From Patescibacteria group bacterium (lineage in GTDB: Bacteria > Patescibacteriota > Minisyncoccia > Minisyncoccales > Staskawiczbacteraceae), in NCBI GenBank assembly GCA_018829965.1, contig JAHJTG010000005.1, forward strand, positions 1 through 47,557: a stretch of 47,557 nt of DNA. Reading direction: 5' to 3'. Shown piece after piece: positions 2,134-23,188 of the stretch. Position 1 is the first letter of the stretch; each line of letters starts with the position of its first letter. The notes beneath the pieces were generated by a model. It was not told where the DNA came from. It ran no database searches and worked only from the letters and a program-made list of their open reading frames with translations. A program made the translations under genes and the position numbers.

Positions 2134-2141
2134 AGTAAAAG

Positions 2142-2709: not shown

Positions 2710-2718
2710 AAGTTTATT

Positions 2719-3544: not shown

Positions 3545-3640
3545 GTTTTGGATATACCAAATATGTCCAATCCGCTATATCCACTATAACGAACTGTAGC
3601 GAATTGGATAGAGGCTAATTGCCTCCCTATACAGAAAGAC

Positions 3641-7390: not shown

Positions 7391-7409
7391 TTTTGTTGAA
7401 TTGAAAGCC

Positions 7410-7418
7410 TGTGGATAA
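7410..7418 (-). promoter_or_regulatory. Consensus DnaA box
   Basis: TGTGGATAA is the reverse complement of TTATCCACA; intergenic. Confidence 0.45.
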
Positions 7419-7487
7419 GTAATTTGGCTTTCTATTTATTTTCTATTATACTATAAGTATAGAAGTAAACCAAACCAGTGTCAAACT

Positions 7488-9026
7488 ATGCTTACTAAAA
7501 GAAGAAAAGAAGTCTTGGACTTCATAAAAAAATATAAGGCTAAGAAAAAATATGCTCCCTCGCTTGAGGAAATACGGAAGCATTTTCGGCTTGCCTCCGT
7601 CTCAACCGCCCATTTTCATGTAAAGAAATTACAAGAAGACGGCTATCTGCAAAAAGAATACAATCAACCACGAGGCATTGATGTAATCAAACGCGATGAA
7701 ATAATAAAAATTCCAATAATGGGAACTATTACTGCGGGCCAACCGATTGAAGCAATAGAAGTCCCAGATTCAATGGTCGCAATTTCTAAAAAAGAAATAA
7801 CTGCGAACCAAAAACATTATGCTTTACGGGTCCGAGGCGATAGCATGATCAATGATGGTATATTTGATGGCGATGTTGTTGTAATTCGCAAGCAAGAGAC
7901 CGCCGACGATGGCCAAACAGTCGTAGCAATTATTGATGATAATGAGGCTACTCTCAAAAAAATTTACACAGAAAAATCGCGCATTAGATTACAACCAGCA
8001 AATCAAGAAATGTTGCCTTTCTACCGAAAAGAAGTAGAGGTGCGAGGTGTTGTAGTCAAAATCATAAGAAATTTAGAAAATGGCACCCAGGATAATACAC
8101 TCGCTTATAAGAAAAAAGTCTTTTTGGATCGCATAAAAAGCTCTAACCCCAAAAGTCAAAATAAATATAAAAGGGTTGTCCTTTCCCCTATTAGATATGC
8201 CGGGGGGAAAACTTTAGCAGTTGGGCATGTTATTGAATTATTGCCCGATAATACAAAAAGAGTTGTTTCACCTTTCTTCGGCGGTGGTTCAATTGAAATA
8301 GCTATGAGCAAAGAGTTAGATTTAGAAGTAATCGGTTATGACATTTTTGATATTCTTTGCAATTATTGGAAATTTCAAATAGAAAAACCAGAACTTCTTT
8401 ATAATAAATTAAAGGAATTAAAACCAAACAAAAAAACCTTTGAAAAAATAAGGTTAATTTTAAACGATGTGTGGAAGAAAAAGATTAAGTTAGACCCGCT
8501 AACACTCGCAGTTTATTATGTCTATAACTTTAATCTCTCCTATGGTCCCGGATTTATGGGCTGGTCGTCTGAGATTTACTTGGATGATAAAAGATACAAA
8601 AGAATGATAGAAAACATTCGGGATTTTAACCCCAAAAATCTAAGGGTGGAATGTGCGGACTTTCAAGAAGTAATTAAAAATCATCCTAATGACTTTCTAT
8701 ATTGCGACCCTCCATATTATATCGGAAAAGACTCAAAAATGTTTAAAGGGATCTATCCGATGAGAAATATACCTGTTCATCACAACGGATTCCCACATGA
8801 AGCCCTAAGAGATCTATTAAAAAATCATAAAGGCGGTTTTGTGCTTTCTTATAATAATTGCCCAACAATAAGAGAATATTATAAAGATTTCCAGCAATTC
8901 TTCCCCAGTTGGCAATATACAATGGGCCAAGGAGAAACAAGAATTGGCTTAAATAGAAAAAATGGCAACGGTAGCCATGTAAAAGAATCTCATGAGATAA
9001 TTGTTTTTGGTCCGCCTAAAAAATAG
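7488..9026 (+). CDS. LexA repressor fused to a Dam/D12-class N6-adenine DNA methyltransferase
   Basis: LexA HTH (YAPSLEEI...SVSTAHFHV), Ala-Gly site (TAGQP), GDSM and TLKK catalytic motifs; then YAGGK, SPFFGGGS, DPPY. Confidence 0.9.
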   Translation: MLTKRRKEVLDFIKKYKAKKKYAPSLEEIRKHFRLASVSTAHFHVKKLQEDGYLQKEYNQPRGIDVIKRDEIIKIPIMGTITAGQPIEAIEVPDSMVAISKKEITANQKHYALRVRGDSMINDGIFDGDVVVIRKQETADDGQTVVAIIDDNEATLKKIYTEKSRIRLQPANQEMLPFYRKEVEVRGVVVKIIRNLENGTQDNTLAYKKKVFLDRIKSSNPKSQNKYKRVVLSPIRYAGGKTLAVGHVIELLPDNTKRVVSPFFGGGSIEIAMSKELDLEVIGYDIFDILCNYWKFQIEKPELLYNKLKELKPNKKTFEKIRLILNDVWKKKIKLDPLTLAVYYVYNFNLSYGPGFMGWSSEIYLDDKRYKRMIENIRDFNPKNLRVECADFQEVIKNHPNDFLYCDPPYYIGKDSKMFKGIYPMRNIPVHHNGFPHEALRDLLKNHKGGFVLSYNNCPTIREYYKDFQQFFPSWQYTMGQGETRIGLNRKNGNGSHVKESHEIIVFGPPKK

Positions 9027-9028
9027 AG

Positions 9029-9568
9029 CTATTTTCTATTCAATCTCTTTCGATGGTACAAATTATGTTTTTTGGCTAAATCTGGTGGATACGGCTTATG
9101 ATTCTCTTGGAAATTCCAATCGGGATATTTCTTCTCTCTTAAAAAATAGTCAGATTTACACAAATCTTCCATCTCTTTAAAGCTTGCGATTTCTACTTTT
9201 TTAGGACCAAACAACCCGTTAACCGTAGCCAATGTTCTAGGAGAAGTTATCATAAATAGTTCTACCTTTGATTTGCTTTTAAGAGCTCTTTCAATAAGTA
9301 AATGAGCAACAAACCGAGGGACGCCCGGACTGCCCGTCATAGCGGATACATAAAAAATCATAGTTGCTTTAATCCCTCCTTTTGAAGTAGAGCCGCCAAT
9401 TTTTTTAATAATCCCGTCTTGAACTATTAAATAAATCCTTGCCGAATTATCAGTAAGCACCTTCTTATCAAGGGTAGGCAGATATTTAATATCTATCTTA
9501 TTTCTATGATGTTTTTTTAATATAAAATCGCCTACTTTAATTGCTGTTTTTACATCTTTAATATTCAT
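9029..9568 (-). CDS. GIY-YIG (Hpy188I-like) restriction endonuclease
   Basis: RIYLIV...IKKIG motif, conserved E, C-terminal P-x-W-N-x-Q; convergent with the MTase. Confidence 0.7.
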   Translation of the reverse strand: MNIKDVKTAIKVGDFILKKHHRNKIDIKYLPTLDKKVLTDNSARIYLIVQDGIIKKIGGSTSKGGIKATMIFYVSAMTGSPGVPRFVAHLLIERALKSKSKVELFMITSPRTLATVNGLFGPKKVEIASFKEMEDLCKSDYFLREKKYPDWNFQENHKPYPPDLAKKHNLYHRKRLNRK

Positions 9569-9685
9569 AAAAATTATGTGTTAAAATCACGATTTATACT
9601 TTTAGGATAGCACCTCGAATAAAAATTGGCAATCTTTTAATGGTGAAATCCGACAAAATATGTCAGAATAGAAGATAGATGAAAA

Positions 9686-10414
9686 ATGAGTATGGAAAAT
9701 AATATGACACCAGAAGAAAAATTTAATCAAAAAATGTGGTGGCTTTTACAGCAAATCAAAGAAGCTGATCTTTTGAGATCTCCCGAGGAACCATTTGAAT
9801 TTTTAATCCAGCAACAAAAAGACGCACCCCCCAAAGACGACCAAAGAAAACTCGTTTATAAATTAGAAAACTTAAAAGCCATAAAGATTAGTAAACAATT
9901 TACCTATATAGACTCCGGCCTTACTAAAGTTATATTTAAAGAAAATGCTTCAGAAAGTGAAGCAAATGGCTTTCATTTAAAAATCCTGCCGAAATTTGAT
10001 GAAGTTTATGGGGAATTTAGAGAAAAAGCCGAATTGTTAAAAGAGAACACAACTAAAAAAGAATTAAAACAAAAGAGTGGCACAATTGATAAAATCATTA
10101 TTGTAAAACCGAAAGACGGTAATAGATTCAAAATAATAATCAATGATGATTATCACCAAAGGCCGCTTGATGGCGACATGGCCAAGCCAAGCTGGAATTT
10201 ATTATTCAGAGTGGCCGATGGTGATCTTATCGAAGATCAAGAATATAAATCATCATTTGATTTTTTTAATAGTAATGAAAAATGCAGATTATATACACAA
10301 ACGGGCTATCCAAAAACAAAAATACTAAAAAGAGAAAGCGGGTATATCAAACCGGCTGTTAAAATGGAAATCATCACCGAGAAAGCATACAAACAAAGAT
10401 GTAAAAAGGGCTGA
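9686..10414 (+). CDS. Hypothetical protein; C-terminal domain paralogous to 15498..16667 (putative regulator)
   Basis: Shared KSG.I.KI.I, NDDY, FN.N.KC..Y and EII.E..Y..R pattern. Confidence 0.7.
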   Translation: MSMENNMTPEEKFNQKMWWLLQQIKEADLLRSPEEPFEFLIQQQKDAPPKDDQRKLVYKLENLKAIKISKQFTYIDSGLTKVIFKENASESEANGFHLKILPKFDEVYGEFREKAELLKENTTKKELKQKSGTIDKIIIVKPKDGNRFKIIINDDYHQRPLDGDMAKPSWNLLFRVADGDLIEDQEYKSSFDFFNSNEKCRLYTQTGYPKTKILKRESGYIKPAVKMEIITEKAYKQRCKKG

Positions 10415-10452
10415 AATACGGCTTAAAAAAACTTAAAATGTGGATAACTTCG

Positions 10453-10480
10453 GCACCGCTTCAAAAAAGCGGTGTTTTTT
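10453..10480 (+). terminator. Intrinsic terminator
   Basis: GCACCGCTT-caaa-AAGCGGTGT followed by a T-run. Confidence 0.7.
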
Positions 10481-10567
10481 AATTACGCTTAAAAGTTTTC
10501 GGCATTTTTTAAGCGTTTTGTAATTGATAAATTTTAGATAGAGATAAAATTACTAACTTTTGTGAAC

Positions 10568-10735
10568 ATGTCGAACAAAAACGCACAACTGAATATCAAG
10601 CAAATTGAGGAAATGGTGGCCGAACGGCTGGCCGAGATTTTAGTTCAGCAATTGGAATGGCAGAGAGAACAGCAAGAAAAAATTAAAGAGAAAAATAAGT
10701 ATGGAAAAGATAAAAGAAAAATTCATAACCAGTGA
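10568..10735 (+). CDS. Small hypothetical protein (55 aa, absent from the ORF track)
   Basis: MSNKNAQLNIKQIEEMVAERLAEILVQQLEWQ...; first gene of the element core operon. Confidence 0.55.
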   Translation: MSNKNAQLNIKQIEEMVAERLAEILVQQLEWQREQQEKIKEKNKYGKDKRKIHNQ

Positions 10736-10949
10736 TTTCTATACCGCTGTCTTTTTAATGGCCAGCGGATATAAGCTATTCGGAATCAACAAAACCGAGC
10801 CTCGGCGCTATCGCTTTATTTTTGAGGACGATAAAAATAGAGCGAAACTGCTCGAGGATTTTTTTAATAACAAAACAAAGGTTGAAGCAAGAAAGTTTAT
10901 TGGCGCCATAAAAGAGCTGAAGTCGCTGATGTATAACGACGCTATTTAA
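10701..10949 (+). CDS. DUF5659-like small protein
   Basis: TSDFYTAVFL..GYKL..I...F.F pattern typical of this small phage/MGE family. Confidence 0.6.
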   Translation: MEKIKEKFITSDFYTAVFLMASGYKLFGINKTEPRRYRFIFEDDKNRAKLLEDFFNNKTKVEARKFIGAIKELKSLMYNDAI

Positions 10950-10963
10950 GCCGGCAAATCAAT

Positions 10964-11779
10964 ATGGAAAATGTAAAACCAACAATTGATAATAATGACT
11001 TCATCCGGCTACCAAGAAGCATAAAGGAATTTTATCTGGACAGATTTTTACTGCTCGAGGAATTTATTGTCTTGGTTTGGCTCTGGTTCGGCGCCAATCC
11101 CAAAACCGGCAGGATTAATGTCAGCTACGAAGGATTGAGTAAAGATTTTCAGGAAAGATACTCAAAAAATCAGATTAACAAGATAATGCTCGAGCTTAAG
11201 CGGAAGAAGCTGATATGGTATCCCAGACAGCAAGGCCGCAGAAGTTCTTTTAATGTGGATATCCAGAATTATCCGCTAAGTAAAGGCAAGCCCAGAGATA
11301 TTACTGAATTGTTTAATGGCAACTCTGGCAGAAGTTCCAGCAGAAGTGAAAGTGATAATCCAGCAGAAGCGCCGGCAGAAGTTAAAACATCTTGGCAGAA
11401 GTTAAAAACCGAAAAAAAGAGCTTAATAAAGCGATTTTCTACACCCTTCAATAATGACTCTGGCAGAAGTTACAATAACGATAACGAGAAAGAAAATTAT
11501 AATAAAAATCGATCGTCTTTTAATAAAATTTATGATCGGGTCGGTTTAATGGACTTTACTCCTAAGAGCTACGAGGAAGAAAGGTGCTGGCACATAGCAA
11601 GATATCTGGACGAAAAAGATATGAGGTTTATGCGCTCAGCTCTTAAGAAATACGGATTTCACGCCATAGAGAGCGCCTATAACGAAATTAAGGAAAGACC
11701 GCCGGGATCAATTCAAAATAAAGGCGCCTATTTCAATGAATTATCAAAGAGGTCTACAGATAAAAACAAATCTACTTAA
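10964..11779 (+). CDS. Putative replication initiator (phage O/RepO-like)
   Basis: N-terminal wHTH-like region, low-complexity linker encoded by DNA repeats, C-terminal IQNKGAYF motif. Confidence 0.65.
   Translation: MENVKPTIDNNDFIRLPRSIKEFYLDRFLLLEEFIVLVWLWFGANPKTGRINVSYEGLSKDFQERYSKNQINKIMLELKRKKLIWYPRQQGRRSSFNVDIQNYPLSKGKPRDITELFNGNSGRSSSRSESDNPAEAPAEVKTSWQKLKTEKKSLIKRFSTPFNNDSGRSYNNDNEKENYNKNRSSFNKIYDRVGLMDFTPKSYEEERCWHIARYLDEKDMRFMRSALKKYGFHAIESAYNEIKERPPGSIQNKGAYFNELSKRSTDKNKST
11235..11471 (+). repeat. Iteron-like repeats (7 x GCAGAAG[T/C]), putative origin
   Basis: Copies near 11235, 11323, 11337, 11360, 11372, 11392 and 11458; CTCTGGCAGAAGTT occurs twice exactly. Confidence 0.7.
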
Positions 11780-11790
11780 CGCTACTTTTT

Positions 11791-12294
11791 ATGCCTAAAT
11801 TGAAGCGCTTAACTGAATATCACAAAAGAGCGATGGAGCTGAAATATAAAGGTAATTCTTATCAAGAAATTGCCGATTTTCTCAATGAAAAGTTTAAAAA
11901 AAGTAGAAAAACAAAAAGCGGCCTTTCTTTTACAGAACAGACCATCAAGGATTGGTTTAAGGAATCCGGCACGCTCTGCGAGGATCATCGCCTCTATGAG
12001 GAAGAAATGGATGAAATTCACAAAGAGACAATAGATGTAATCCGTAAAGCCGGCATCCAGATTCGAGAACAAAACTTTCGCTTAGCCAACGAAATGCTGA
12101 TCGCCCTAATGGGAAGCGATAATGACAGCATCAAGCTCGCCGCAATTAAAGAATTGCTAAATCGAGTGGAAGGCCAACCAAGACAATTTTTGGATGTCAA
12201 AAAAGACGAGGAGGGACTTCTTGTTTATGAATCAATTATTAGAAAGATTGAACAAGAAAAAGAAGAACAAGAACAAACTGGAAAACAAGAATAA
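11791..12294 (+). CDS. HTH protein, terminase small subunit-like
   Basis: N-terminal HTH (GNSYQEIADFL); C-terminal IKLAAIKELLNRVEGQPRQ. Confidence 0.5.
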   Translation: MPKLKRLTEYHKRAMELKYKGNSYQEIADFLNEKFKKSRKTKSGLSFTEQTIKDWFKESGTLCEDHRLYEEEMDEIHKETIDVIRKAGIQIREQNFRLANEMLIALMGSDNDSIKLAAIKELLNRVEGQPRQFLDVKKDEEGLLVYESIIRKIEQEKEEQEQTGKQE

Positions 12295-12362
12295 CCAGCT
12301 GTGGGTAACTCGCTTGGCTTGTGCCAAGGGTAAGCACATAATGGGGGTTGCCAAAAAACAAT

Positions 12363-14063
12363 ATGAAAAATGCATTAATTTACTGCCGAGTATCAACCGA
12401 AGAACAAGTTAAAGAAGGCTACTCTTTAGACGCGCAGGAAAAATTCTGCGCTAAATTTGCTGAAAACGATGACTACCGAATCGTGGAAGTATTTAGAGAT
12501 GAAGGCAAAAGCGCCACCACCCTTGATAGACCAGCCCTTCAGGATCTTTTAGCCAAATGCCAGCAGGATGACTCTGTTGACGCTGTATTCGTTCAGGAAA
12601 CAGACCGGCTGGCCAGAAACACCAAAGATCATCTGACCATCAGGGCTGTGCTCCAAAAAGCAGGAGTTAAGCTCGTTTCTGTTGCCCAGCCAATGCTTGA
12701 TGACAGCCCGGAAGGCAATATGATTGATACGATTTTGGCCAGTGTTAATCAATTTCAATCTGACCTTAACAGCCGAAAGACCAAAAAAGGCCTGCAGGAA
12801 AGATTTGACCAGGGCTGGTGGCCGGGCTGGGTGCCGCTCGGTTATCTTAATGTGGGTGTGGGCGGCAACGCTGACGGCCGCAAAGCCAAAAAGATTATTA
12901 AAAAAGACCCGAAAAGATTTGATCTGATTAGAAAAATGTTTGATATGGTTTTGAGCGGAAACTACTCTGTCCCTCAAACTCACACTATCGCAGTTACCGA
13001 GTAGGGTTTTAGAATGCCCAACGGAACTAAAATGTCCCGAAGCACTTTTTACTCTGTTATTGGCAATCCTTTTTATTATGGCTATTACGAATATCCAAAA
13101 AAGTCTGGCATCTGGCATAAAGGAAAACACCCGGCCATGATCACCAAAGACGAATACGATCAAATTCAAAATATGATCAGGCCAGACAATATCAAGCCAA
13201 TGAAGCACGTATTCGCTTTTACGGGTTTAATTAAATGCGGTGAGTGCGAAGCCACGATCACAGCCGAACATAAAACCAAAAGACAAATAAATGGCAATGT
13301 CCATTATTACACTTACTACCACTGCACTAAACGAATAAACAAAAACTGTTCTCAAAGAGTAATTCAGGTGCAAGATTTAGAAAAAGAGATCGCTGAGATA
13401 TTGGGAGGTTTGACCATACCGCCAGAATTCAATGAATGGGCAATGAGCTGGCTTAAAGACGAAAACCACAAAGAAGCTGATGATAGAAACGATATTTTAG
13501 ATACTCAACAAAAATCATACAATGAATGCATTAAGAAAATTGACAATCTGATTGATATGCGAGCTGGCGGTGAGATTAGCGAACAGCAGTTCAAAGACAA
13601 GAAAGCCAAAATTGTTAAAGAAAAAATGCACTTGCAGGAATTATTAAAAGATACAGACAAACGAGTAGACAATTGGCTGGAACGAGCAGAGGAAGCGTTG
13701 ATATTTGCCCAAAACGCCAAACTTGCCTTTGAAAATGGAACATTACAGAGAAAAAGAGAGATACTAAACACCTTAGGTTCGAACCTCCTGTTAAAAGACA
13801 GAAAACTGCGTATTAACTTGGAAAATTGCCTTTTGCCCATGCAAAAAGTCGATACTGGGTCCGGCAACAAAAAAAGCGGGTTCGAACCGCTTGATTTGTG
13901 CGTAGATAAAAGGAAAAACACCGCTTCAGGCGGTGTTCGTCCAGATTGGCTCCCCTTCAAGAACGCACTTACTCGGTTTGATTGGAGAGCATTTAGGGTT
14001 GAGCTGGACGCCTTTGTCTCAACTTATAATATCTCTTTGGGCGGAAATTGGGGCGGAGTATAA
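12363..14063 (+). pseudogene. Large serine recombinase interrupted by an in-frame TAG (13002-13004)
   Basis: YCRVST, DRLAR and Zn ribbon CGEC...YYHC; ORFs 12348..13004 and 13014..14063 are in the same frame. Confidence 0.85.
13917..13976. repeat. Hairpin plus att-like junction inside the 3' end of the LSR
   Basis: AACACCGC-ttcag-GCGGTGTT then TGG CTC CCC TTC AAG AAC (WLPFKN), positionally equivalent to LLRGQD in the other LSR. Confidence 0.55.
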
Positions 14064-14770
14064 CAACTTCCAGAAACATTTGTATCAGCAGGGATAGCTT
14101 GAGTATTGGTGGTAATTGTGGTGCTTTCTTGGTTTATATTTTTGAGAATACCCGTCTGCAATTTCCAAGTCCATTCTAAAATAAACTTCTGTTTTTCTGC
14201 AAATTGTTGAGCCTTATTTTTATCGGCTTCTAACTCTTGATATATGTTTTCTATTGCCTTTTTGGTATCCTCAAAAAAACAACTTACACTTAACCAGACG
14301 TGAGGCGTTTCCGAGCTTTTATCCTGAATTTGCAAGTGTCTGCCATCGGGGAGAGTGGTAATGAAGTTGTGAACGAAAAAACTATGGCTAAGTCTGTGCC
14401 TAATTAAATTAAATAAAAAACTGATAAAATCCTTATTCTTATAATTGCCGCTCATTTTAGAGAGATAATTAACACAGAAAAACTCAAAATCATCTGCCTT
14501 ACCAACCCTCTCAAACTCATTATTTTTTTCTCTTGCTTCTGAGGGAACACTCCAATTAGTATCAAAATTTATGCAATAACCAAAAAAGGCTACGATATTT
14601 AACAAATATAAAATAGAGGGATAACCTACCTGTTCTTTTATCATTCGGTTCATATCGTATAAAAAATAAGAGCTTACATTCTGTTGATGTCTTTTGGCGT
14701 GAGCTTCATTCCATTCTTTGCCGTCATAACCAACATATAACTCAAAAAATTTCTGTATATCTTTGTCCAT
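14024..14770 (-). CDS. Hypothetical protein with a HEPN-like Rx4H motif
   Basis: NLIRHRLSHSF. Confidence 0.55.
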   Translation of the reverse strand: MDKDIQKFFELYVGYDGKEWNEAHAKRHQQNVSSYFLYDMNRMIKEQVGYPSILYLLNIVAFFGYCINFDTNWSVPSEAREKNNEFERVGKADDFEFFCVNYLSKMSGNYKNKDFISFLFNLIRHRLSHSFFVHNFITTLPDGRHLQIQDKSSETPHVWLSVSCFFEDTKKAIENIYQELEADKNKAQQFAEKQKFILEWTWKLQTGILKNINQESTTITTNTQAIPADTNVSGSCYTPPQFPPKEIL

Positions 14771-14835
14771 TTATTTAACAATGGTTTACTTTTATATTAA
14801 GTTATTCTAAACTAATCTAATAAAATAGTAAACGA

Positions 14836-15501
14836 ATGGTTTTAGACAATTATAAAAATATAATTAACGAAATAGTAATCTACAAAGATAAGGAGAAAGA
14901 CCCCGAAAAAAAGAAAAGTTGGGAGGCTTTTGAGCTTAACACCAGACGACTTGATAGAACTATTGAAATCCAAAATAGAATAAAATTACTATATAAACAA
15001 AATAGGTTTATTGAATGTATTTGCTTTATAAGTCAGTTTGCTGAATTTAAGTTAAAAGAGCTTATTAAATTGTATGTTGATTTATCCTTACTGCTTAATA
15101 AGAAAATAAAAATTGGGGAGAATTGGCAAGAGAAACCATTGGGGACACTAACCAATACAGCAAAAAAATTGTTAACCGATGACAACTTAATGAAAAGATT
15201 GAAAGATTTTAACAATTTGAGAATAAAATCAATACATAAAATCTTTGATGTTAATTATCAAATAGCAGAAGTTGAGGAAGAGATAAATCAATATCTGAAA
15301 ACTAATGATTATTACGAGAACATTATAAACCCCATACAAAGATACTCCACGATAATAACAAAGGAAATTTTTGATTACAAAACTAATCTTGAACCCGTGC
15401 CAGAAGAAAGCAAAATTATCGTTTCTAATCTGTTGCGAGAAATGGAAAAAATTGACCCATTGCTTAAAAATCAAGAGCTGAAAAAACAAATAAAATTATG
15501 A
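14836..15501 (+). CDS. Hypothetical protein with a HEPN-like Rx4H motif
   Basis: QFAEFKL...KPLGTL...FNNLRIKSIHK. Confidence 0.55.
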   Translation: MVLDNYKNIINEIVIYKDKEKDPEKKKSWEAFELNTRRLDRTIEIQNRIKLLYKQNRFIECICFISQFAEFKLKELIKLYVDLSLLLNKKIKIGENWQEKPLGTLTNTAKKLLTDDNLMKRLKDFNNLRIKSIHKIFDVNYQIAEVEEEINQYLKTNDYYENIINPIQRYSTIITKEIFDYKTNLEPVPEESKIIVSNLLREMEKIDPLLKNQELKKQIKL

Positions 15502-16667
15502 GTAGCGTAGCCGAAAACTTAGAGCGACATTATAGAGCTTTTATAGACCAGCAAAATGAGTGGGGGTTTTTCTTGGGACTGGCTTATTATGTAAACTTTA
15601 TTTTAGAAACACCAGAGACCGATAAAATTACCGATTTACTGCTTAAAGAGAGAAGAAATGAAGAGAAGAAGATAAAAGACTTAGGAGATGAAGTGTTGAA
15701 GGAAGTAGAACCAGTAATAAAAGATTTAATTAGAAAAATACAAAATGCAAAAATATCTTATCCTGCCCTTGATAATGAGATAAAAGACTACGAAGGATAT
15801 AAAAATAAAACAATCAAAGGAAGCGAACCTCCTCCCGTTTGCTTTGGCAGGATTTTACATAACACAATAAGAAGCCTTTCTGAAAATGGGCATAAAGAAT
15901 TAGTAAAAGATTATATTAGAGAAGAAAGGGGCATTCTTTATACAGACAAACACAAATTTTCAAAAAAATTATACGCTTATAATTTAGCAAGGAAGAAATA
16001 TGATGAAAAATTAGAAATTACTTTCTGGGGGTTTTGGGATTATATCTCTTTTGCCTATCTTGCGGTTTTGAAAGCGGACGAAACGCTTGAAAATCTAAGA
16101 AGAGAAAAGGCAGACTGGTTTACTATCAGTAATTTGGTCGGATATTTCGGTGAAATGAAAACGATTAAAGATGGCGATATTAGAGACTTAATAGTTGAAT
16201 TTAAGAGAGAGAAATACGAACCCTATGCGACAAACCTACATAATTATTTGCTTAAAGAATTGAGCACTAATAATAAAAAGGCAAAGCAAAAAGTTGAAAT
16301 CGGGAAGAGTGGTAAAATTAAAAAAATAACTATAATAGAATTGAAAGACAGAAAACACCTGCTCGCCGTTAATGACGACTATAAGAATGTTAAAAAAATA
16401 AGGAAATCAAAATACTACCCTATTTTTATTGAGGAAATTGCAAAAAGAGAAGTTCTTAATAGAACTGATAATAACAAAATTTCTAATGAAATGGCGGAAT
16501 ATTTTAATAATAATAAAAAATGTCTTGCTTATATGAATGGTAAATATGGATTAACTGCCATTTTTACTGGCGACGAAGAGGAGAGGGAGATTAACTGGGA
16601 GATAAAAACAGAAATAATCAACGAAGATGATTACTTGAAACGCCTTAGAAAAATAACAAAAAAATAG
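15498..16667 (+). CDS. Hypothetical protein; C-terminal domain paralogous to 9686..10414
   Basis: KSGKIKKITII...NDDY...YFNNNKKCLAY...EIINEDDYLKR. Confidence 0.7.
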   Translation: MSSVAENLERHYRAFIDQQNEWGFFLGLAYYVNFILETPETDKITDLLLKERRNEEKKIKDLGDEVLKEVEPVIKDLIRKIQNAKISYPALDNEIKDYEGYKNKTIKGSEPPPVCFGRILHNTIRSLSENGHKELVKDYIREERGILYTDKHKFSKKLYAYNLARKKYDEKLEITFWGFWDYISFAYLAVLKADETLENLRREKADWFTISNLVGYFGEMKTIKDGDIRDLIVEFKREKYEPYATNLHNYLLKELSTNNKKAKQKVEIGKSGKIKKITIIELKDRKHLLAVNDDYKNVKKIRKSKYYPIFIEEIAKREVLNRTDNNKISNEMAEYFNNNKKCLAYMNGKYGLTAIFTGDEEEREINWEIKTEIINEDDYLKRLRKITKK

Positions 16668-16695
16668 CTTACCAAGCTTACCAAGACTTACCAAG
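16668..16695 (+). repeat. Three direct repeats CTTACCAAG
   Basis: At 16668, 16677 and 16687; inverted half-copies GGTAAG/CTTGGT at 16757-16771. Confidence 0.85.
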
Positions 16696-16708
16696 CATTT
16701 TAGAAAGT

Positions 16709-16736
16709 AAAAAGCCGAACAAAATCGGCTTTTTTT
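16709..16736 (+). terminator. Intrinsic terminator
   Basis: AAAAGCCGA-acaaaa-TCGGCTTTT followed by a T-run. Confidence 0.75.
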
Positions 16737-16802
16737 GTTTGTGTTCGCAAGGTTGAGGTAAGCTTCTTGGTTGTGAAATAATTGGGGCAGAAGCTAAAAA
16801 GT

Positions 16803-16976
16803 ATGAAGTTAGAAAGCCCCAACGAAAATCAAATAAAGAAAGACGAAGCATACTGGAAAGCGAGGCAAAACCTTTTCGGATTTTTTAGTTTGCTTTTAGA
16901 AGTTGATATGAGAGTTAATCCGCACCTTTACAAAAATAAAGAAACTAAAGAACCGAAAAAAGAAACTGAAAAATAA
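16803..16976 (+). CDS. Small hypothetical protein
   Basis: ARQNLFGFFSLLLEVDMRVNP; ATG at 16803 preferred over TTG at 16782. Confidence 0.6.
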   Translation: MKLESPNENQIKKDEAYWKARQNLFGFFSLLLEVDMRVNPHLYKNKETKEPKKETEK

Positions 16977-16980
16977 TCCT

Positions 16981-17361
16981 ATGCCTAAATATAATATCAA
17001 CTTAATTACGGCAAGGAGGAGCTACTACATAAACGAGATAGTGTTTCTTTTGAAAATAACCAGAAAAACCTGCGGACTTTGGATAAAACAGGAGGGATTA
17101 AAAACCATTGAGGGTATAACTCCTTTTGTGATTAAGGGTTATGATTTGATAGATTTTATAAAAGAAAAACGGGCGAAAGGAAAAATCCCAGTAAAAGAAA
17201 ACGAGTTTTTATGTATGAAGTGCCGACAAGGGGTTAAGCCAAAAACTGGGAGTGAGCAAATACTAAAAACGGGCAAAAGGATAGGGAAAGATAACCACGA
17301 GCAGTTAAGAAAAACAGGGATTTGCGAGAAATGCGGGACACGGCTCTATAAATTTTTATAG
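16981..17361 (+). CDS. HTH plus Zn-ribbon DNA-binding protein (possible directionality factor)
   Basis: SYYINEIVFLLKITRKT..WIK.GL HTH; CMKC...CEKC; directly upstream of the integrase. Confidence 0.65.
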   Translation: MPKYNINLITARRSYYINEIVFLLKITRKTCGLWIKQEGLKTIEGITPFVIKGYDLIDFIKEKRAKGKIPVKENEFLCMKCRQGVKPKTGSEQILKTGKRIGKDNHEQLRKTGICEKCGTRLYKFL

Positions 17362-17443
17362 GTATGCCAATGGGATTATAGTGTTATTTGCTATTACTCG
17401 TAAATGTTATATCTAAACTATTAAATAATAAACAAAAAAAATT

Positions 17444-18574
17444 ATGAAAATAACTTACAAAAATGAGCGATTAAAAAAGGAATTTTATAAGTGGCTCAAA
17501 AATTCAAAACAATTTTCAGAAGAAACGATTAAATGCTACGAAAAGGCAGTTTGGCTGTGGGAGGATTTTTCAAACAAAGACGATTTTGGCAGTTTCAACG
17601 AAACAACGGCGGAGGCATTTCGGGAATGGGTAAAAAATAAAAGAAAGCATAACTCCCAAGAAATAATTAGCATTACTTATTGTTATCATAATTTACGATT
17701 TCTAAAAACCTTTTTTGTATGGCTATCTAAACAAAAGGGCTATAAATTAAGAATAAAAGAGCCAGCTATTGATTGCCTTAATTTATCAAAAAATGAAGTT
17801 AGGGAGGCTAAGCAGGTTAAGAGCATTAAAAATCCAACACTGGACGAGATAAAAATGGTTATAGAAACCATTAAGGGAAAAACCGAAATTAAAATGAGAG
17901 ATAAAGCCATTTTTTCTTTGGCTTTCTTGACTGGGGCAAGAATTTCGGCGATTAGGACGCTCCCAATGAAAAGTTTTGATAAAAAAGAATTGATTATTTA
18001 CCAAGACCCTGCGTTTGGAGTTGAAACGAAAGGCAATAAAAGGATTGTTTCTGTTTTAATCCCTTTTGGTTATGAAGAGGCAAAGGACTATTTTATTGAA
18101 TGGTTTGACTATCTAACAAATCAGAAAGGGTTTGAGCCAGACGACCCCATATTCCCCGCCACTAAAATTGAAAATGGAAAAGATAACATAAATTTTTACA
18201 ATACGCAGGAGGTTGAAAATAGAAAGATAAAAAGCTCTGGCTCATTAAGGAAGATATTTCAGAAAAGATTTGAGCAAGCAGGGCTTAATTATTATCACCC
18301 CCACACTTTTAGGCATTGGCTTGTTAAAAGAATGGCAGAGTTTTCATTAACAGAAGAGCAGAGAAAAGCGTTTAGCCAATGTTTAGGACACGAAGATGTC
18401 GGGACAACTTTCGGCTCTCGGGGCTATGGGAGAATTGACGAGAGCAGACAAATAGATGTTATGAAAAGCATTGATTTTGAGGGATTAAAAGGAGGGAAAA
18501 AGCAGACAATAAGCGACGAGGATATAAGCCGAATTGCAAAACAAGTTAGCGAGAGTATTAAAAATAATACTTAA
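17444..18574 (+). CDS. Tyrosine recombinase/integrase
   Basis: TGARISAI, TK, HTFRH, LGH and catalytic Y (RGYG). Confidence 0.9.
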   Translation: MKITYKNERLKKEFYKWLKNSKQFSEETIKCYEKAVWLWEDFSNKDDFGSFNETTAEAFREWVKNKRKHNSQEIISITYCYHNLRFLKTFFVWLSKQKGYKLRIKEPAIDCLNLSKNEVREAKQVKSIKNPTLDEIKMVIETIKGKTEIKMRDKAIFSLAFLTGARISAIRTLPMKSFDKKELIIYQDPAFGVETKGNKRIVSVLIPFGYEEAKDYFIEWFDYLTNQKGFEPDDPIFPATKIENGKDNINFYNTQEVENRKIKSSGSLRKIFQKRFEQAGLNYYHPHTFRHWLVKRMAEFSLTEEQRKAFSQCLGHEDVGTTFGSRGYGRIDESRQIDVMKSIDFEGLKGGKKQTISDEDISRIAKQVSESIKNNT

Positions 18575-18633
18575 TCCACACTTGCCGTTGTCAACTATTG
18601 TCAAATGAAATATAATGATAATATAATATAAAA

Positions 18634-19398
18634 ATGAAAGATTTCAAATCATCAGCTTACAAAGTATTAGAAGGGGCTAAAAAGCCGTTGCATAGTAAAG
18701 ATATAACTAATAGGGCTATTAAGGCTGGCTACTTAAAAACGACTGGCAAAACTCCCGAAGCCACAATGAATGCCCTTTTAATTACTGATATAAACGAAAA
18801 AAAGAACAAGTCGGCTTTTATTAAAACAGACCCCTCAACATTTAATATAAATCCCAAGTTTAATAAAAGCGCAATCAGAACTGCCCTTAAAGAAAAGGAC
18901 TATCCCATATCAAAAACAATTTCCTCAAAACAAAAAGGCGACATAGGAGAGGCGAGAATAGCTGAGTTAATAATGTTGTATGGAGAAAACCTGTCTTGCT
19001 ACAAACCCATATCAGACGATGAGGGTATTGATTTAATTATAAAACAAAGAAGTAGTTTCAAAACTTTTCATTTACAAGTAAAAACTCGGTATGGGACAAG
19101 TTCCAATACTTCTTTAATAGCAGTCGCTAAAGAAAAGTGCGTAAAGAAAGATACTGCACTTGGTTTGGTATTTTGTTTTTTTGATACAGAGGACGGCGAT
19201 ATTTGGGATTATATATGGTTTGTGCCAGCAATAGAATTTATTAAACTTGCAAAAAAATCTTATAATAAGAAACTTGGCTCTATCTATAAGTTTATAGCTG
19301 GGAGAAGCCAAAAAGATACAAATAAATGGGCTAAATTTCTTATAGACAAAAGAGATTTGGGCAATAAAATAATAAAACAATTAGAAACATTAAAATAA
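18634..19398 (+). CDS. HARE-HTH plus PD-(D/E)xK endonuclease
   Basis: KPLHSKDIT...GKTPEATMNA HARE-HTH; KGDIGE...DDEGID...LQVK. Confidence 0.75.
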   Translation: MKDFKSSAYKVLEGAKKPLHSKDITNRAIKAGYLKTTGKTPEATMNALLITDINEKKNKSAFIKTDPSTFNINPKFNKSAIRTALKEKDYPISKTISSKQKGDIGEARIAELIMLYGENLSCYKPISDDEGIDLIIKQRSSFKTFHLQVKTRYGTSSNTSLIAVAKEKCVKKDTALGLVFCFFDTEDGDIWDYIWFVPAIEFIKLAKKSYNKKLGSIYKFIAGRSQKDTNKWAKFLIDKRDLGNKIIKQLETLK

Positions 19399-19399
19399 T

Positions 19400-19579
19400 A
19401 TGACACAAGAAAAAGAGTTTTATCTCGTTGAAGAATTGGCTGAGAAGCTAAGAATTTCTAATATGACGATTTACCGCTACATAAAAGCAAAAAAGGTTAA
19501 GGCCTATAAAATAGGCAAGGCGTTTCGCATAGACCAAAAAGAATTTAATAATTTTCTTAATAAAGTTAAAAATAAATAA
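19400..19579 (+). CDS. Excisionase-like HTH_17 protein (59 aa, absent from the ORF track); possible R-M controller
   Basis: MTQEKEFYLVEELAEKLRISNMTIYRYIKAKKVKAYKIGKAFRI. Confidence 0.85.
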   Translation: MTQEKEFYLVEELAEKLRISNMTIYRYIKAKKVKAYKIGKAFRIDQKEFNNFLNKVKNK

Positions 19580-19581
19580 AT

Positions 19582-20433
19582 ATGAACGCATATAAAGATT
19601 TTCAAAACAGGTTCAAGGTATTAGCAAGCAAACACAGAAATTTAGTCGTGAATACCCTATCAAATATATTTACGATGAGGTTGATTGGTAATAAAACACA
19701 CGGAGATTTGGCGGAAATAGGTATAGCCGAGTTTATCAATCAATTTATGTATGATTTTAAGAGTATACACGTCGGCAAAGACCTTTTCCGAGCTAAAGAG
19801 CACGAGGAAGATATTGTTATCATCAACGAGATAACAAACTCAAAATTTCCAGTTAGCTTAAAGGCGTATGGAGATGGTCCATTACAACTTTCAACTGATA
19901 GCGACCAAAAAATGTTTCCTTATCTTGAAAAGCAAGGGAGAGAAATTACAGACAAAAGAAAGATAGCGGAAATATTTTCTTCTACAGCTTTCTCAGAATT
20001 TAATAATATCAATGTGATGCCACTTATCTATAATGAAAAGAAGAAGCAGTGTAATATAATGATTTTTGACCACGAAAAAGCTATTAAAAATACTGCAAGA
20101 ATTTTATATATAGATAAAGGAGAAAGTCTCGCTGGCAAGAGTAAGGGTAAGAGCAGAAAGCACCCGATTTTTATGTTTTTAGATAAAGATAATAATTATA
20201 TTTGCGAGGTTCGTTATGGCGGTGCGTCGGCGAACGCACTGCAAAGGGGGCTTTGGACACAAACAAAAAATGCTACAAGCTATTTTGATAGCATTACAAA
20301 TGGCTGGATTGATTACTCACACAACCACGCATTAGTAAAATTATTTAGCCTTGCGTTAAATAGCACAGAAGCGGGACATAAAGAAGCAAATAAAATCTTG
20401 CAGGAAGATATTGATAAATTAATAAAGACGTAA
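19582..20433 (+). CDS. Putative type II restriction endonuclease
   Basis: HGDLAE...EEDI...VSLK PD-(D/E)xK-like pattern; 1 nt from the MTase gene. Confidence 0.65.
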   Translation: MNAYKDFQNRFKVLASKHRNLVVNTLSNIFTMRLIGNKTHGDLAEIGIAEFINQFMYDFKSIHVGKDLFRAKEHEEDIVIINEITNSKFPVSLKAYGDGPLQLSTDSDQKMFPYLEKQGREITDKRKIAEIFSSTAFSEFNNINVMPLIYNEKKKQCNIMIFDHEKAIKNTARILYIDKGESLAGKSKGKSRKHPIFMFLDKDNNYICEVRYGGASANALQRGLWTQTKNATSYFDSITNGWIDYSHNHALVKLFSLALNSTEAGHKEANKILQEDIDKLIKT

Positions 20434-20434
20434 T

Positions 20435-21643
20435 ATGTCAAAAGAGCTTAGTATATCAAAAAAGCTAAATCTATTTAACGAAAGAGATTTTTCTCATATA
20501 AAAACTCAGGGCATAAAATATGCTGGGTCTAAGTTAAAGATAATTCCCTATATTTTAGAAAGCATAAAAGACTTAGAGATTAAAACGATTTTAGACGGAT
20601 TTAGTGGGTCAACCAGAGTAAGCCAAGCATTGGCTCAAGCAGGTTATAATGTTGTTTCCAATGATACTGCTTGCTGGTCTGAAGTATGTGCAAAATGTTT
20701 TTTGTTGAGTAAGAAAGATAAAAAATACTATCAAAATATACTTGATGAACTCAATTCTCTAAAAGGACGTAATGGCTGGTTCACCAAACATTACGGCGGA
20801 GACAAAGCAATGAAAGTAAAAATGCCCTTTCAAATAAAAAACACAAGGAAATTAGATGCTATAAGAGACAGAATTGACGAACTAAAATTAAATGATATTG
20901 ACAAGTCTGTTGTTCTAACAAGTTTGCTGTTTGCGTTAGACGCAGTAGATAGCACACTTGGACACTTCGTATCATATCTCTCTAAGTGGTCTAAGCGTTC
21001 CCATAATGATTTAATGCTTAAAGTCCCCGAATTAAAAAAAACTAACGGCAAACACAAGGTTCTTAGAGAAGACATTTTTGATGTGATAAAAAATAATACT
21101 TTTGACCTTGCGTATTTTGACCCTCCGTATGGGTCAAATAATGAAAAAATGCCTCCAAGTAGAGTAAGATATTCTTCCTATTATCATATTTGGACATCTG
21201 TTGTTAAAAATGACAAACCAACTCTATTTGGAAAAGTGAACCGAAGAGAGGATACGAGGGATTTAATTTCAGCCTCCATATTTGAAGAATTTAGAAAAAA
21301 CGAAAGCGGAAATTTTATTGCAATGGAAGCAATAAAAAGAATGGTTCAAGAGACTAAGGCAAGGTATATTTTACTTTCTTATAGCTCTGGAGGAAGGGCG
21401 ACTAAAAAAGAACTTGAGCAGATTTTTGAAGGAACGGGAAAAATTCTTAAAATTATTGAGATAGACTACAAAAAAAATATTATGGCAACTATGAGTTGGA
21501 CGAATGAGTGGATAAACTCAGATGGAGAACATAAAGAATACCTCTTCTTAATGGAAAAATCCGCAAATAAGTGCAATGCCCTCACGGAAAATAATAAACG
21601 AAAAGTTCTACTTGATAACATCACCCCGCCCTTAACAGCATAA
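20435..21643 (+). CDS. D12-class N6-adenine DNA methyltransferase
   Basis: YAGSK, DGFSGS and DPPY motifs. Confidence 0.9.
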   Translation: MSKELSISKKLNLFNERDFSHIKTQGIKYAGSKLKIIPYILESIKDLEIKTILDGFSGSTRVSQALAQAGYNVVSNDTACWSEVCAKCFLLSKKDKKYYQNILDELNSLKGRNGWFTKHYGGDKAMKVKMPFQIKNTRKLDAIRDRIDELKLNDIDKSVVLTSLLFALDAVDSTLGHFVSYLSKWSKRSHNDLMLKVPELKKTNGKHKVLREDIFDVIKNNTFDLAYFDPPYGSNNEKMPPSRVRYSSYYHIWTSVVKNDKPTLFGKVNRREDTRDLISASIFEEFRKNESGNFIAMEAIKRMVQETKARYILLSYSSGGRATKKELEQIFEGTGKILKIIEIDYKKNIMATMSWTNEWINSDGEHKEYLFLMEKSANKCNALTENNKRKVLLDNITPPLTA

Positions 21644-21646
21644 AAT

Positions 21647-23155
21647 ATGAAAGCAGTAATACTCGCAAGAGTTTCAACAACAAGGCAAGAAGAGGAGGGG
21701 CACTCGCTCCCCGCTCAAATAAGGAGGTTGCAGGAATACGCAAAGAAAAAAGGCTTTGAAATAGCCGAGACTTTTTCTTTTTCTGAAAGTGCGGGAGGCA
21801 AAATTAGAAAGAAATTTGAAGAAGTTATGACCTATATCAAAACTCATAAAGATGTTAAAGTTTTGCTTTGCGAGAATGTTGACCGAGCGACAAGGAACTT
21901 TAAGGACGCTGTTGATTTAGACGAAATGAGAAAAAACGAGGGTTTAGAAATTCATTTCGTCCAAGACGGATTTTTCATAAATAAAAATGCTACTGGCAAC
22001 CAAATGTTTATGTGGGAGGCAAAGGTATTTATTGCCAAGCAATACTTAAACCGATTATCTGATGATGTCAAAAGAAGCAACGAGCAGAAGCTACAAAATG
22101 GCGAATGGATAAACAAGCCCCCGATAGGATACATTGGCACGATAGACCCTAAGGGCAACAAAGGAATGATACCAGACCCGTTAAAAAGCCACCTTGTCGT
22201 TAAAATCTTTGAAATCTATGCTACTGGGAGCTCCTCAATTCTAAAGATTAAAGAAACAATGGACGCTCTGGGTTTAAGAGGCAATACAAGGGACAATAAG
22301 CCCCTCTGTAAGAGCCAAATACACTATATCCTTAATAATCCCTATTACTACGGCTTAATGCGTGTTAACGGGCAATTATACGAACATAAATATGAACCCT
22401 TAATAACCAAACAACTTTTTGATAGAGTGCAGGAAGTATTTAGTGGTTATGATAAAAAACCTTTCAGATATGGTTGTAAGCCTTTTGTATTTAGGGCTAT
22501 GGTAAGATGTTCAGAGTGCGGGTGCTTGATTGGCGGAGAGCTTAAAAAAGGACACTATGTTTATTATTCTTGCAATAATTATAAGAAAGTCCACAAGCAA
22601 AGGGTTTATGTTAAAGAGATTGATATGCTTGAACCAGTTCGCAGGGTTTTAGAAAAGATAAAATTAACAGACCAACAAAAAAACGAACTGATAGAAGATT
22701 TTAAGAAATCAGACAAAAGTAAGAATAAGTTTGTAAGTGCCAAGCTCCCAGAGCTAACGGCAGAGTTTGATTTATACGAAACGAGAAAAAGCGAAACTTG
22801 GAATAAATATGTGGATAAGGAAATAAGTAAGGAGATGTATGACAAAAAATACAAAGAATATGACGACAAGCAGAACGCTATAAAAACCCAAATGGGAAAA
22901 TTCCAAGTAGCTGATGTAGAATTTTACACAACAATAAATATGATTGTGGCTCTCTCTCAAAGAGCCGAAGAAATCTTTGAAAGTTCTGAACCTCACGAGA
23001 AAAGGGCTTTTGCCAATTTCTTACTTCAGAACTGCCAATTAGAAGGCGAAAAGCTGAAATTTGAACTTAAAAGCCCCTTTGACGGGGCTTTATCTGCACA
23101 CGACTGTTCTAACTTGCTCCGCGGCCAGGACTCGAACCTGGAACCTTCTCGTTAA
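21647..23155 (+). CDS. Large serine recombinase whose 3' end overlaps tRNA-Asn
   Basis: ARVST, DRATR, CSEC...YYSC; final codons LRGQDSNLEPSR are antisense tRNA sequence. Confidence 0.93.
   Translation: MKAVILARVSTTRQEEEGHSLPAQIRRLQEYAKKKGFEIAETFSFSESAGGKIRKKFEEVMTYIKTHKDVKVLLCENVDRATRNFKDAVDLDEMRKNEGLEIHFVQDGFFINKNATGNQMFMWEAKVFIAKQYLNRLSDDVKRSNEQKLQNGEWINKPPIGYIGTIDPKGNKGMIPDPLKSHLVVKIFEIYATGSSSILKIKETMDALGLRGNTRDNKPLCKSQIHYILNNPYYYGLMRVNGQLYEHKYEPLITKQLFDRVQEVFSGYDKKPFRYGCKPFVFRAMVRCSECGCLIGGELKKGHYVYYSCNNYKKVHKQRVYVKEIDMLEPVRRVLEKIKLTDQQKNELIEDFKKSDKSKNKFVSAKLPELTAEFDLYETRKSETWNKYVDKEISKEMYDKKYKEYDDKQNAIKTQMGKFQVADVEFYTTINMIVALSQRAEEIFESSEPHEKRAFANFLLQNCQLEGEKLKFELKSPFDGALSAHDCSNLLRGQDSNLEPSR
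23070..23091 (-). terminator. Probable tRNA-Asn terminator encoded inside the LSR gene
   Basis: AAAGCCCC-tttgac-GGGGCTTT, 25 nt past the tRNA 3' end. Confidence 0.6.
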
Positions 23156-23188
23156 CAGCGAGTTGCACTACCATTGTGCTACCGCGGA
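23117..23188 (-). tRNA. tRNA-Asn(GTT)
   Basis: TCCGCGG/CCGCGGA acceptor stem, CT-GTT-AA anticodon loop, GGTTCGAGTCC T-arm; CCA not encoded. Confidence 0.97.

Follow-up and report, generated by a model that had tools for sequence, protein, structure and literature searches.

What becomes of a recombinase gene when the site at which it recombines lies within its own last codons, and does the encoded protein change with the state of the element? The question is raised by a stretch of 47,557 nucleotides (nt) from a Patescibacteria group bacterium (contig JAHJTG010000005.1, assembly GCA_018829965.1; hereafter, the window), in which the gene for a large serine recombinase (LSR), LSR1, runs into a tRNA-Asn gene on the opposite strand. 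We consider it likely that the attachment (att) site of the free element, attP, lies inside the last codons of LSR1, that the C-termini encoded in the inserted and excised states differ, and that the LSR1 island (E1) is stacked on an older island (E2). A regulatory consequence of the swap belongs to this reading and is put forward conditionally. The coordinates of all features are given in Table 1.

The LSR1 gene, its tRNA and its partner site

In its inserted form LSR1 is intact, with a Resolvase domain (PF00239; residues 3-154, E 3e-19), a Recombinase domain (PF07508; residues 180-265, E 4.7e-12) and a zinc ribbon (PF13408, Zn_ribbon_recom; residues 282-317, E 1.2e-5, 26.0 bits against a cut-off of 25.3). 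Arginine R8 and the catalytic Ser10 are invariant in an alignment of 23 family members, as are the zinc-ribbon cysteines C288, C291 and C309. The AlphaFold2 model of a homologue, P0016, contains long helices at residues 344-391 and 397-440 (mean predicted local distance difference test score, pLDDT, 82).

The final 40 nt of the LSR1 open reading frame (ORF) are antisense to tRNA-Asn(GTT), the sole tRNA-Asn gene that ARAGORN detects in the 740-kb genome, and cover its acceptor 3' strand, T-arm, variable region and half of the anticodon arm. The C-terminus reads ..CSNLLRGQDSNLEPSR*, with the TAA stop falling in the anticodon loop. Residues 1-491 are encoded by the element and residues 492-502 (RGQDSNLEPSR) come from the antisense tRNA-Asn; all domains are kept, and the change is confined to residues past 491. 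The overlap of the ORF with the tRNA called by ARAGORN and Rfam, together with the junctions described below, bears out an earlier note on the window, which had proposed that LSR1 ends in antisense tRNA, that the recombinase gene contains the att site and that the inserted and excised states encode different in-frame C-termini.

The overlap recurs among relatives. At 16 of 23 LSR loci from this genome and 40 related genomes, the ORF terminates within a convergent tRNA or immediately beyond it (Asn, Gln, Asp, Leu, Gly, Pro or Ser), and two further loci (G002 and G013) adjoin a tRNA-Asn with a group I intron (Rfam 78 and 73 bits), owing to which ARAGORN misses the gene. All ten LSR1-type loci among the genome contigs, at 48-71% identity and from Saccharibacteria, Staskawiczbacteria, Berkelbacteria and Paceibacterota, end in a convergent tRNA (Asn in six, Lys in two, Gln and Arg in one each). 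A metagenome set of 80 LSR loci included 67 with a C-terminus: 34 ORFs end in a tRNA found by ARAGORN, about 18 have antisense T-arm tails at contig ends or intron-bearing tRNAs, 11 terminate in some other way and in 4 the ORF is cut off by the end of the contig. The tRNA-Asn beside rpoD is a hotspot, with the order LSR, tRNA-Asn, rpoD in G000, G001, G002, G013 and G018. The overlap of LSR gene and tRNA is a family habit, not a local accident.

The intron-bearing tRNA-Asn genes beside rpoD lie at 2282-2502 of locus L032 (G002) and 1804-2137 of locus L033 (G013), where the integrase ORF continues into the antisense intron; tails of the form ..PYTYP..GLYHH.. (antisense intron) were also seen in L057, L097, L101 and L109. 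Many LSR genes of relatives begin 130-340 nt from a contig end, and many metagenome contigs end 30-100 nt past the LSR, inside the tRNA. LSR-tRNA junctions seem to be systematic break points of assemblies.

Serine integrases leave no long direct repeat, and no second copy of the 26-nt tRNA end was found in the window at up to 3 mismatches, so the partner site of LSR1 had to come from comparison with relatives. The stretch at 13909-14038 has a counterpart in genome G017 (DNA 73% identical, protein 55%), which lies there as tail DNA about 8.7 kb upstream of, and on the same strand as, an LSR gene 71% identical to LSR1. Tail DNA homologous to 13953..14060 also precedes the LSR of L048, whose target is tRNA-Lys, by 7.4 kb, and that of L045, whose target is tRNA-Gln, by 8.0 kb; in L045 it lies at the very start of the contig. 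Adjoining the tail DNA in related elements are homologues of the E1 backbone genes 15498..16667, 16981..17361 (65-67% identity) and 17444..18574 (55-84%). Since backbone and tail DNA are common to LSR1-type elements, LSR1 is the integrase of E1, a restriction-modification island of ~9.2 kb inserted at the extreme 3' end of the single tRNA-Asn. The earlier note had paired LSR1 with a site at 144; position and the tail homology in three related elements correct the partner to 13950.

The crossover was bounded by five attL/attR or attP/attR comparisons, namely four pairs of left and right junctions (attL and attR) and the comparison of locus L084. Sequence shared by attL and attR is overall just 5-10 nt long: GCTCC in the window and in G017, and GCTGC in L045. 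The left junction of L048 consists of the end of a host gene, a native hairpin with a T-run, TTGTGCCCTC and tail DNA, and at its right junction the same TTGTGCCCTC is followed by tRNA-Lys. The 3' end of LSR2, the second large serine recombinase of the window, matches the LSR-tRNA-Asn junction of G001 at 280 of 300 nt up to GCTCC and at 11 of 40 thereafter. Similarly, in a second lineage, L084, which has the tail form, is identical to six tRNA-Asn-joined relatives at 242-247 of 251 nt up to TGGCTCCCC and at 9 of 40 beyond; for L084 and its near-identical relatives, tail-bearing and tRNA-joined forms are both present in metagenomes. These intervals intersect at tRNA positions 73-69, which places the crossover within GCTCC at 23116..23120, and both the discriminator of tRNA-Asn and its first four acceptor bases come from the element. 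A crossover at GGAC, as the earlier note had it, is refuted: GGAC lies ~10 nt further in, and recombination there would leave at 144 a half T-stem, ATGGG, unable to pair with CCTGG of the tRNA. The CTC at 144, 13950 and 23117 is one shared codon in the frames of the tail, LSR2 and LSR1.

Compared with GGAC-TCGAAC in the tRNA, the P' arms have a GGAC-like motif, 5 nt and a TCGAAC-like motif at four of six sites (144, L048, L045 and L084); tails of the D-V-R-T type imply a 2-nt insert instead, as judged from the protein only. The 5-nt insert would match the shift described in a passage on the LI integrase, for which the zinc-domain motif lies 5 bp further out in attP than in attB (PMC3783163).

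The element also appears to carry a terminator for the tRNA that it displaces from its own. At four of four empty tRNA-Asn sites (G005, G008, G009 and G020), a hairpin and T-run terminator directly follow the tRNA; in LSR orientation these hairpins are preceded by an A-run, which marks them as intrinsic terminators for the tRNA. At occupied sites, a hairpin lies at the equivalent distance within integrase C-terminal codons (..ELKSPFDGAL.. in the window, ..ELKTPFNRVL.. in relatives), and at LSR1 and LSR2 its A-run precedes the stem on the + strand. Folded within 23050-23115, the LSR1 hairpin has a z of -3.0 on the minus strand versus -1.9 on the plus strand, and its position is matched in L034, L036 and L044-L048; the LSR2 hairpin at 13916-13938 has a z of -4.9. 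The earlier note had stated that both LSR genes carry a terminator hairpin before att. The hairpins are there, and their orientation is such that they would serve the convergent tRNA, not the LSR; those of the element may replace the displaced native terminator.

The conserved tail and its possible role

In the inserted state, the LSR1 ORF runs into the antisense tRNA and ends after 11 unselected residues at the TAA of the anticodon loop, and the other half of attP, 9.2 kb away, encodes a conserved tail of 36 residues in the same register. Excision would rejoin this tail, PFKNALTRFDWRAFRVELDAFVSTYNISLGGNWGGV, to LSR1 and give a predicted protein of 527 amino acids (aa). The tail itself can be read directly in the translation of LSR2.

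Ratios of non-synonymous to synonymous substitution (dN/dS; NG86) for tails of the 13950 type are 0.05-0.35 in five of six pairs, with synonymous change saturated in the sixth. Beyond the half-site (codons 10-31), the four such tails vary least at second codon positions: 2-5 of 22, versus 5-14 of 22 first and 7-13 of 22 third positions. Between L048 and L045, 6 of the first 9 tail codons, which fall in the half-site, have changed, with 6 synonymous and 0 non-synonymous differences, a pattern which indicates that the peptide was kept and not the DNA. In phase with the tail, the antisense strand offers no open frame, being interrupted by stops (TCA, CTA and TTA codons). In-frame stops lie 2 codons upstream of the tail in L048 and 30 codons upstream in G017, so the tail is untranslated there when inserted, and selection on the peptide acts only while it is joined to the integrase. 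By these sequence comparisons, the 36-residue tail is under purifying selection, and the conservation of tail reading frames across homologous elements, which the earlier note had named as the test of its proposal, is what we found.

Proteins with the free-form type of end occur among homologues. Among the 120 best LSR1 homologues, 114 had a C-terminus: 55 stop at most 4 residues from the crossover codon, for the most part at a T-stem TAG, 47 continue through an xSN motif like that of the T-arm (a script count in which P0070 is misfiled), and 12 carry other, non-tRNA tails, with one more recognised by eye. About 8 of the non-tRNA tails show, by eye, a D-x-[FLIV]-R-T-like motif. The same two classes of C-terminus occur in the broader LSR2 family (35-52% identity). 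Inserted-form ends range from 1 to about 30 residues, and with ends so variable integration amounts to truncation plus junk residues. An alternative genetic code for the TAGs was considered and rejected, as TAG in several homologues is the natural stop in the tRNA T-stem; the TAG of LSR2 lies in the middle of the recombinase domain.

A tail under purifying selection yet translatable only from the free circle suggests that the tailed and tRNA-ended forms of LSR1 probably differ in activity or stability, and the enzyme would thereby 'know' whether its element is inserted. Our preferred guess is that the tailed form is integration-proficient and that tail loss alters coiled-coil control of attL x attR. 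More specifically, and only tentatively, the tail might be a built-in directionality module, that is, a cis-acting peptide present in the free state only, which sets the state of the coiled coil in attP x attB recombination, and the loss of which on integration would either permit or prevent attL x attR. If this were true, a clade of tRNA-targeting serine integrases would set direction by the recombination state of their own gene and not only by a separate factor. Serine integrases are prized for genome engineering because a small separate factor sets their direction. A large natural family whose C-terminus is rewritten by its own reaction would be a new kind of state-sensing control, and the two natural isoforms make the idea directly testable.

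The overlap could also be real and the tail swap functionally neutral, with attP placed at the gene end for compactness and the tail kept for other reasons such as half-site DNA or neighbouring signals. We regard this as unlikely. The first ~25 bp of the tail are indeed the P' half-site, the D-x-x-R-T motif corresponds, when the frame is shifted, to the tRNA T-loop (CGA ACN) and so may reflect DNA constraint, tails differ widely between subfamilies and are not confidently folded, and the range of inserted ends shows that the enzyme tolerates many of them. Neutrality is, however, hard to square with the least variable second positions of codons 10-31 and a dN/dS well below 1 beyond the half-site, with the exclusively synonymous differences of L048 and L045 at six codons within it, or with a phase-matched antisense frame that is closed by stops.

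Several observations weigh against our reading of a state-dependent C-terminus. The first ~9 tail codons overlap the att half-site, and their conservation could partly be DNA constraint. No protein with a 13950-type tail fused to an LSR was found in a word-limited search with residues 305-349 of the LSR2 ORF, so the 527-aa form of LSR1 rests on position, frame, selection and the other tail types. In the AlphaFold model of the tailed homologue P0016, the tail has low confidence (pLDDT 42-56) and gives no hint of a contact. The TCGAAC-like outer motif is unrecognisable in two of the six P' arms (13950 and G017), and the LSR1 hairpin fails a simple T-run terminator rule, with too few T past the full stem. 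L046 and L047, close relatives of LSR1, are without tail DNA at the left boundary; these elements may have lost the left att half. Neither an excised circle nor an empty-site joint was seen in contigs, as distinct from raw reads. The main Logan contigs of four runs over 4001-24000 have the inserted form, and no 13953/23121 joint was reported among them; contigs drop rare variants, which makes their layout uninformative on excision. One 91-nt low-depth X2 contig matches 13914-13953 only (its positions 1-40, with 3 differences), and a terminal-overlap test found no circular contig among 34 whole metagenome contigs.

The left ends of L046 (1450-1650) and L047 (1690-1870), which target tRNA-Lys and tRNA-Arg, are identical and start abruptly past unrelated host genes, with no core there. 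P0060 was considered as a carrier of the 13950-type tail and withdrawn after BLASTP of the tail against it gave no alignment.

The tandem array and its surroundings

The LSR2 reading frame at 12348..14063 spans 13950 as ..RPDWLPFKNALTRFDW.., in agreement with the earlier note, which had the frame continue across this junction. LSR2 is broken by its TAG and is now in frame with the tail of E1. E1 has inserted beside the older E2, whose integrase LSR2 acted at the same spot and in the same register. Given the match of LSR2 to an LSR gene that abuts tRNA-Asn in G001, a genome of the same genus, G001 resembles the state before E1.

At the outer junction, the earlier note's claim of a site in the same codon register likewise held: CTCCGCGGATGGGACGATTTTCGAAC is present, and the frame is open from CTC at 144 to a stop at 357-359. 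The 8-mer at 144 alone is not beyond chance (2 copies versus 0.35 expected; at least 2 in 5 of 100 shuffles). Read from 147 (RGWDDFRTLRWVDFIEKPE..), the 144 tail matches residues 496-512 of P0090 (10/17 identical, E 1e-7), a 524-aa protein of the LSR1 family with its own tail and no tRNA end, and the match begins directly after the crossover position. This match identifies 144 as a real junction, of the same kind as 13950, and it bounds a tandem array on the outside. A similar succession occurs in G002, where tail-type DNA, GCTCC and a hairpin come after a homologue (79% identical) of gene 252..1220, a gene present in 3 of 40 relatives. From the arrangement of these parts, we read the array as arm, P'(E2), E2, LSR2, P'(E1), E1, LSR1 and tRNA-Asn, with two islands apparently stacked at one tRNA.

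The same junctions could instead delimit a single element of ~23 kb (144-23120), with LSR1 joining the tRNA and 144 sites at GGAC and the 144 tail (RGWDDFRTLRW..) serving as its free-form tail. The 144 tail is a genuine family tail, as P0090 is 46% identical to LSR1; CTCCGCGG is common to 144 and the tRNA, exceeding what 13950 shares with the tRNA; and ACACGACT occurs in the 144 left arm and the LSR1 P arm at 6 and 11 nt from CTCC, a 5-nt offset like that of attB versus attP. With CTCC at all three sites, LSR1 might excise E2 and E1 in one piece. A single element is nevertheless improbable: LSR1 relatives at 64-71% identity have tails of the 13950 type as partners, at 7.4-8.7 kb and beside the E1 backbone; the interval between the 144 and 23120 sites contains a further complete LSR and its P arm; recombination at GGAC would leave half of a T-stem unpaired at 144; and the arm left of 144 measures just 143 nt and also forms the beginning of contig C8. 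Least probable is that 13950 is an intact attP (P + P') of an LSR2-type element carried passively in a larger island, a view to which the smooth reading of LSR2 into the tail, the contiguity of the same left and right sequences in G017 and a weak inverted repeat flanking the core by eye (GTGTTC..GAACGCAC) lend themselves, but G017 keeps ~20 codons of an LSR2-like end with an LSR1-type gene 8.7 kb away, L048 and L045 pair the same tail type with LSR1-type genes without any LSR2-type gene in the element, and the near-identical LSR2-type gene of G001 directly adjoins tRNA-Asn, as expected before E1.

For the two-island array, the outer arm calls for a comment. Positions 1-141 of the window are identical to the first 141 nt of contig C8 of G000, with divergence at 142, two bases before the core, and a third copy of the arm with 144-type tail DNA lies at ~220-354 of contig C13, with a 27-nt insert. 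The shared arm may derive from the ancestral flank of tRNA-Asn, be a repeated sequence or reflect a fork between variants of the genome. C8 continues into a third LSR island, whose LSR (C8:8050-9519) overlaps a tRNA-Gln; the C8 stretch past the shared arm was considered as a tRNA and rejected.

The recognisable cargo of E1 is a type II restriction-modification system, and annotation of the E1 proteins recognised no phage structural genes and assigned several small ORFs to no family. The tyrosine recombinase at 17444-18574 belongs to the conserved LSR1-type backbone (55-84% identity in L045, L046 and L048), so that small islands keep two unrelated recombinases. The genes between 148 and 13953 are accessory. 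Among them, the 1249-aa protein at 3641-7390 (-) had no Pfam, PHROG or PADLOC match and was found in 0 of 40 relatives. A LexA DNA-binding domain, an S24 peptidase and a Dam-type methyltransferase are combined in one ORF at 7488-9026 (+), which lies back to back with an endonuclease-like gene at 9029-9568 (-; phrog_1111); it may be an SOS-cleavable methylase of a restriction-modification pair. Just upstream of LSR2, a short ORF at 11791-12294 (+) holds a Recombinase domain fragment (E 3e-4), possibly a remnant of another serine recombinase, and E2 may on this account be composite.

Other repeats were noted in the window. Intergenic units recur upstream of four consecutive minus-strand genes (29643-29715, 30749-30821, 31354-31407 and 31885-31938), with hairpins at 80-126, 2086-2132, 29603-29649 and 31824-31870. 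In each unit, a ..TGGGACG(A)ACTTGGAACC.. motif comes after a CCACCT..AGGTGG hairpin, and some units contain a GC-rich hairpin as an insert; the TGGGACG motif resembles the P' arms of LSR elements (GACGAACTT.GAACC), and the units match no Rfam family. A 28-nt palindromic unit (..GGGACGTCATACGTCCC..) occurs three times, at 45981-46008, 46517-46544 and 46824-46851, around gene 46022..46753. No inverted repeats of at least 24 nt were found in 1-24000 besides AT-rich chance pairs, and the att site accordingly has no second, inverted copy there.

Table 1 Features of the LSR1 locus and the adjoining island, in positions of the window
Feature	Position	Strand	Remarks
LSR1, intact large serine recombinase, inserted form	21647..23155	+	502 aa; three domains
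tRNA-Asn(GTT), B' side of attR	23116..23188	-	ARAGORN; Rfam 68.6 bits
GCTCC crossover interval at attR	23116..23120		tRNA positions 73-69, antisense; shared attL/attR sequence
Hairpin in LSR1 C-terminal coding region (AAAGCCCC/GGGGCTTT)	23074..23095	-	8-bp stem
Island E1, ~9.2 kb	13954..23120	+	Backbone conserved in L045, L046, L048; order: tail DNA, unknown genes, tyrosine recombinase, HARE-HTH/PD-(D/E)XK protein, type II restriction endonuclease (REase), methyltransferase (MTase), LSR1
GCTCC core at E1 attL	13949..13953		Left arm is 3' end of LSR2
P' arm of E1	13953..14063	+	Encodes 36-aa tail PFKNALTRFDWRAFRVELDAFVSTYNISLGGNWGGV and stop; now fused in frame to LSR2
Tyrosine recombinase of E1	17444..18574	+	
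HARE-HTH/PD-(D/E)XK protein of E1	18634..19398		
Type II REase of E1	19582..20433		PADLOC REase_II, E 5e-120
MTase of E1	20435..21643		E 3e-135
Island E2, ~13.8 kb, possibly composite	148..13953	+	PsyrT/PRTase-like gene, 1249-aa orphan, LexA-S24-methyltransferase fusion, endonuclease, LSR fragment, LSR2
LSR2, second large serine recombinase, right end of older E2	12348..13952	+	In-frame TAG 13002-13004
Two terminator-like hairpins with T-runs in LSR2 C-terminal coding region	13874..13938	-	
Outer junction	143..359	+	Core (A)CTCC, then P'-type tail DNA RGWDDFRTLRWVDFIEKPEKLL.., open to 359
Hairpin in left arm of 144 junction	97..126	-	z -5.95; resembles native terminator after tRNA-Asn at empty sites

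Relation to known systems

LSR1 is like the large serine integrases (Listeria A118/LI, phiC31, Bxb1 and SPbeta SprA) in its domain order of resolvase domain, recombinase domain and zinc ribbon with a long coiled coil. Its short att sites without a long direct repeat would fit this group, as may the P' arms, which at four of the six sites repeat the target motif with an outward shift like the 5-bp one described in a passage of PMC3783163. Unlike A118, phiC31, Bxb1 and SprA as listed, LSR1 targets the 3' end of a tRNA gene, has attP in its own last codons, with a C-terminus that depends on the state of the element, and encodes in its P arm a terminator-like hairpin for the tRNA.

In the original work on mycobacteriophage BPs, integration is said to alter the C-terminus of the repressor and thereby the stability of the protein. 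Integration-dependent immunity in BPs and its relatives has attP inside the repressor gene (PMC4557955). The repressor is the affected protein there, with a tyrosine enzyme as integrase; here it is the recombinase itself that is affected. The SSV-type 'suicidal' integrases of archaeal viruses and plasmids have the recombination site inside the integrase gene, and the passage on them describes tyrosine recombinases whose gene is split into two non-functional parts (PMC8371274). Unlike these, LSR1 keeps its catalytic and DNA-binding domains intact, and its tail alone changes. A serine integrase with a recombination site within its gene is that of the streptococcal IME_Spy2096_SNF2, which targets the protein-coding snf2 where LSR1 targets a tRNA; the passage concerned mentions no protein consequence, conserved tail or family-wide pattern (PMC5357655).

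In Myxococcus phage Mx8, attP lies within int and integration makes a new int 3' end (intP to intX), with changed site specificity and not inactivation, as stated in a passage of PMC6070905. LSR1 has this layout, with attP inside the integrase coding sequence and a new 3' end on integration. Mx8 Int is a tyrosine recombinase and LSR1 a serine recombinase, hence LSR1 is like Mx8 in layout and not a member of its type; in LSR1, the swap is between a tail of 36 residues and one of 11. A search of the literature without most subscription journals returned nothing on a tRNA-targeting serine integrase family with a swapped conserved tail.

The layout is widespread in ultra-small bacteria. It explains the odd tRNA-derived ends of annotated Patescibacteria integrase genes, the assembly breaks at these tRNAs and the tandem stacking of small defence islands at one tRNA without destroying that tRNA. 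The precedents found for an in-gene attP are tyrosine integrases plus one passing mention of a streptococcal serine integrase, and LSR1 is a serine counterpart of the Mx8 layout, to which the window adds a tandem array, an in-frame chimera of one integrase with the tail of another and a terminator-like hairpin within the integrase gene.

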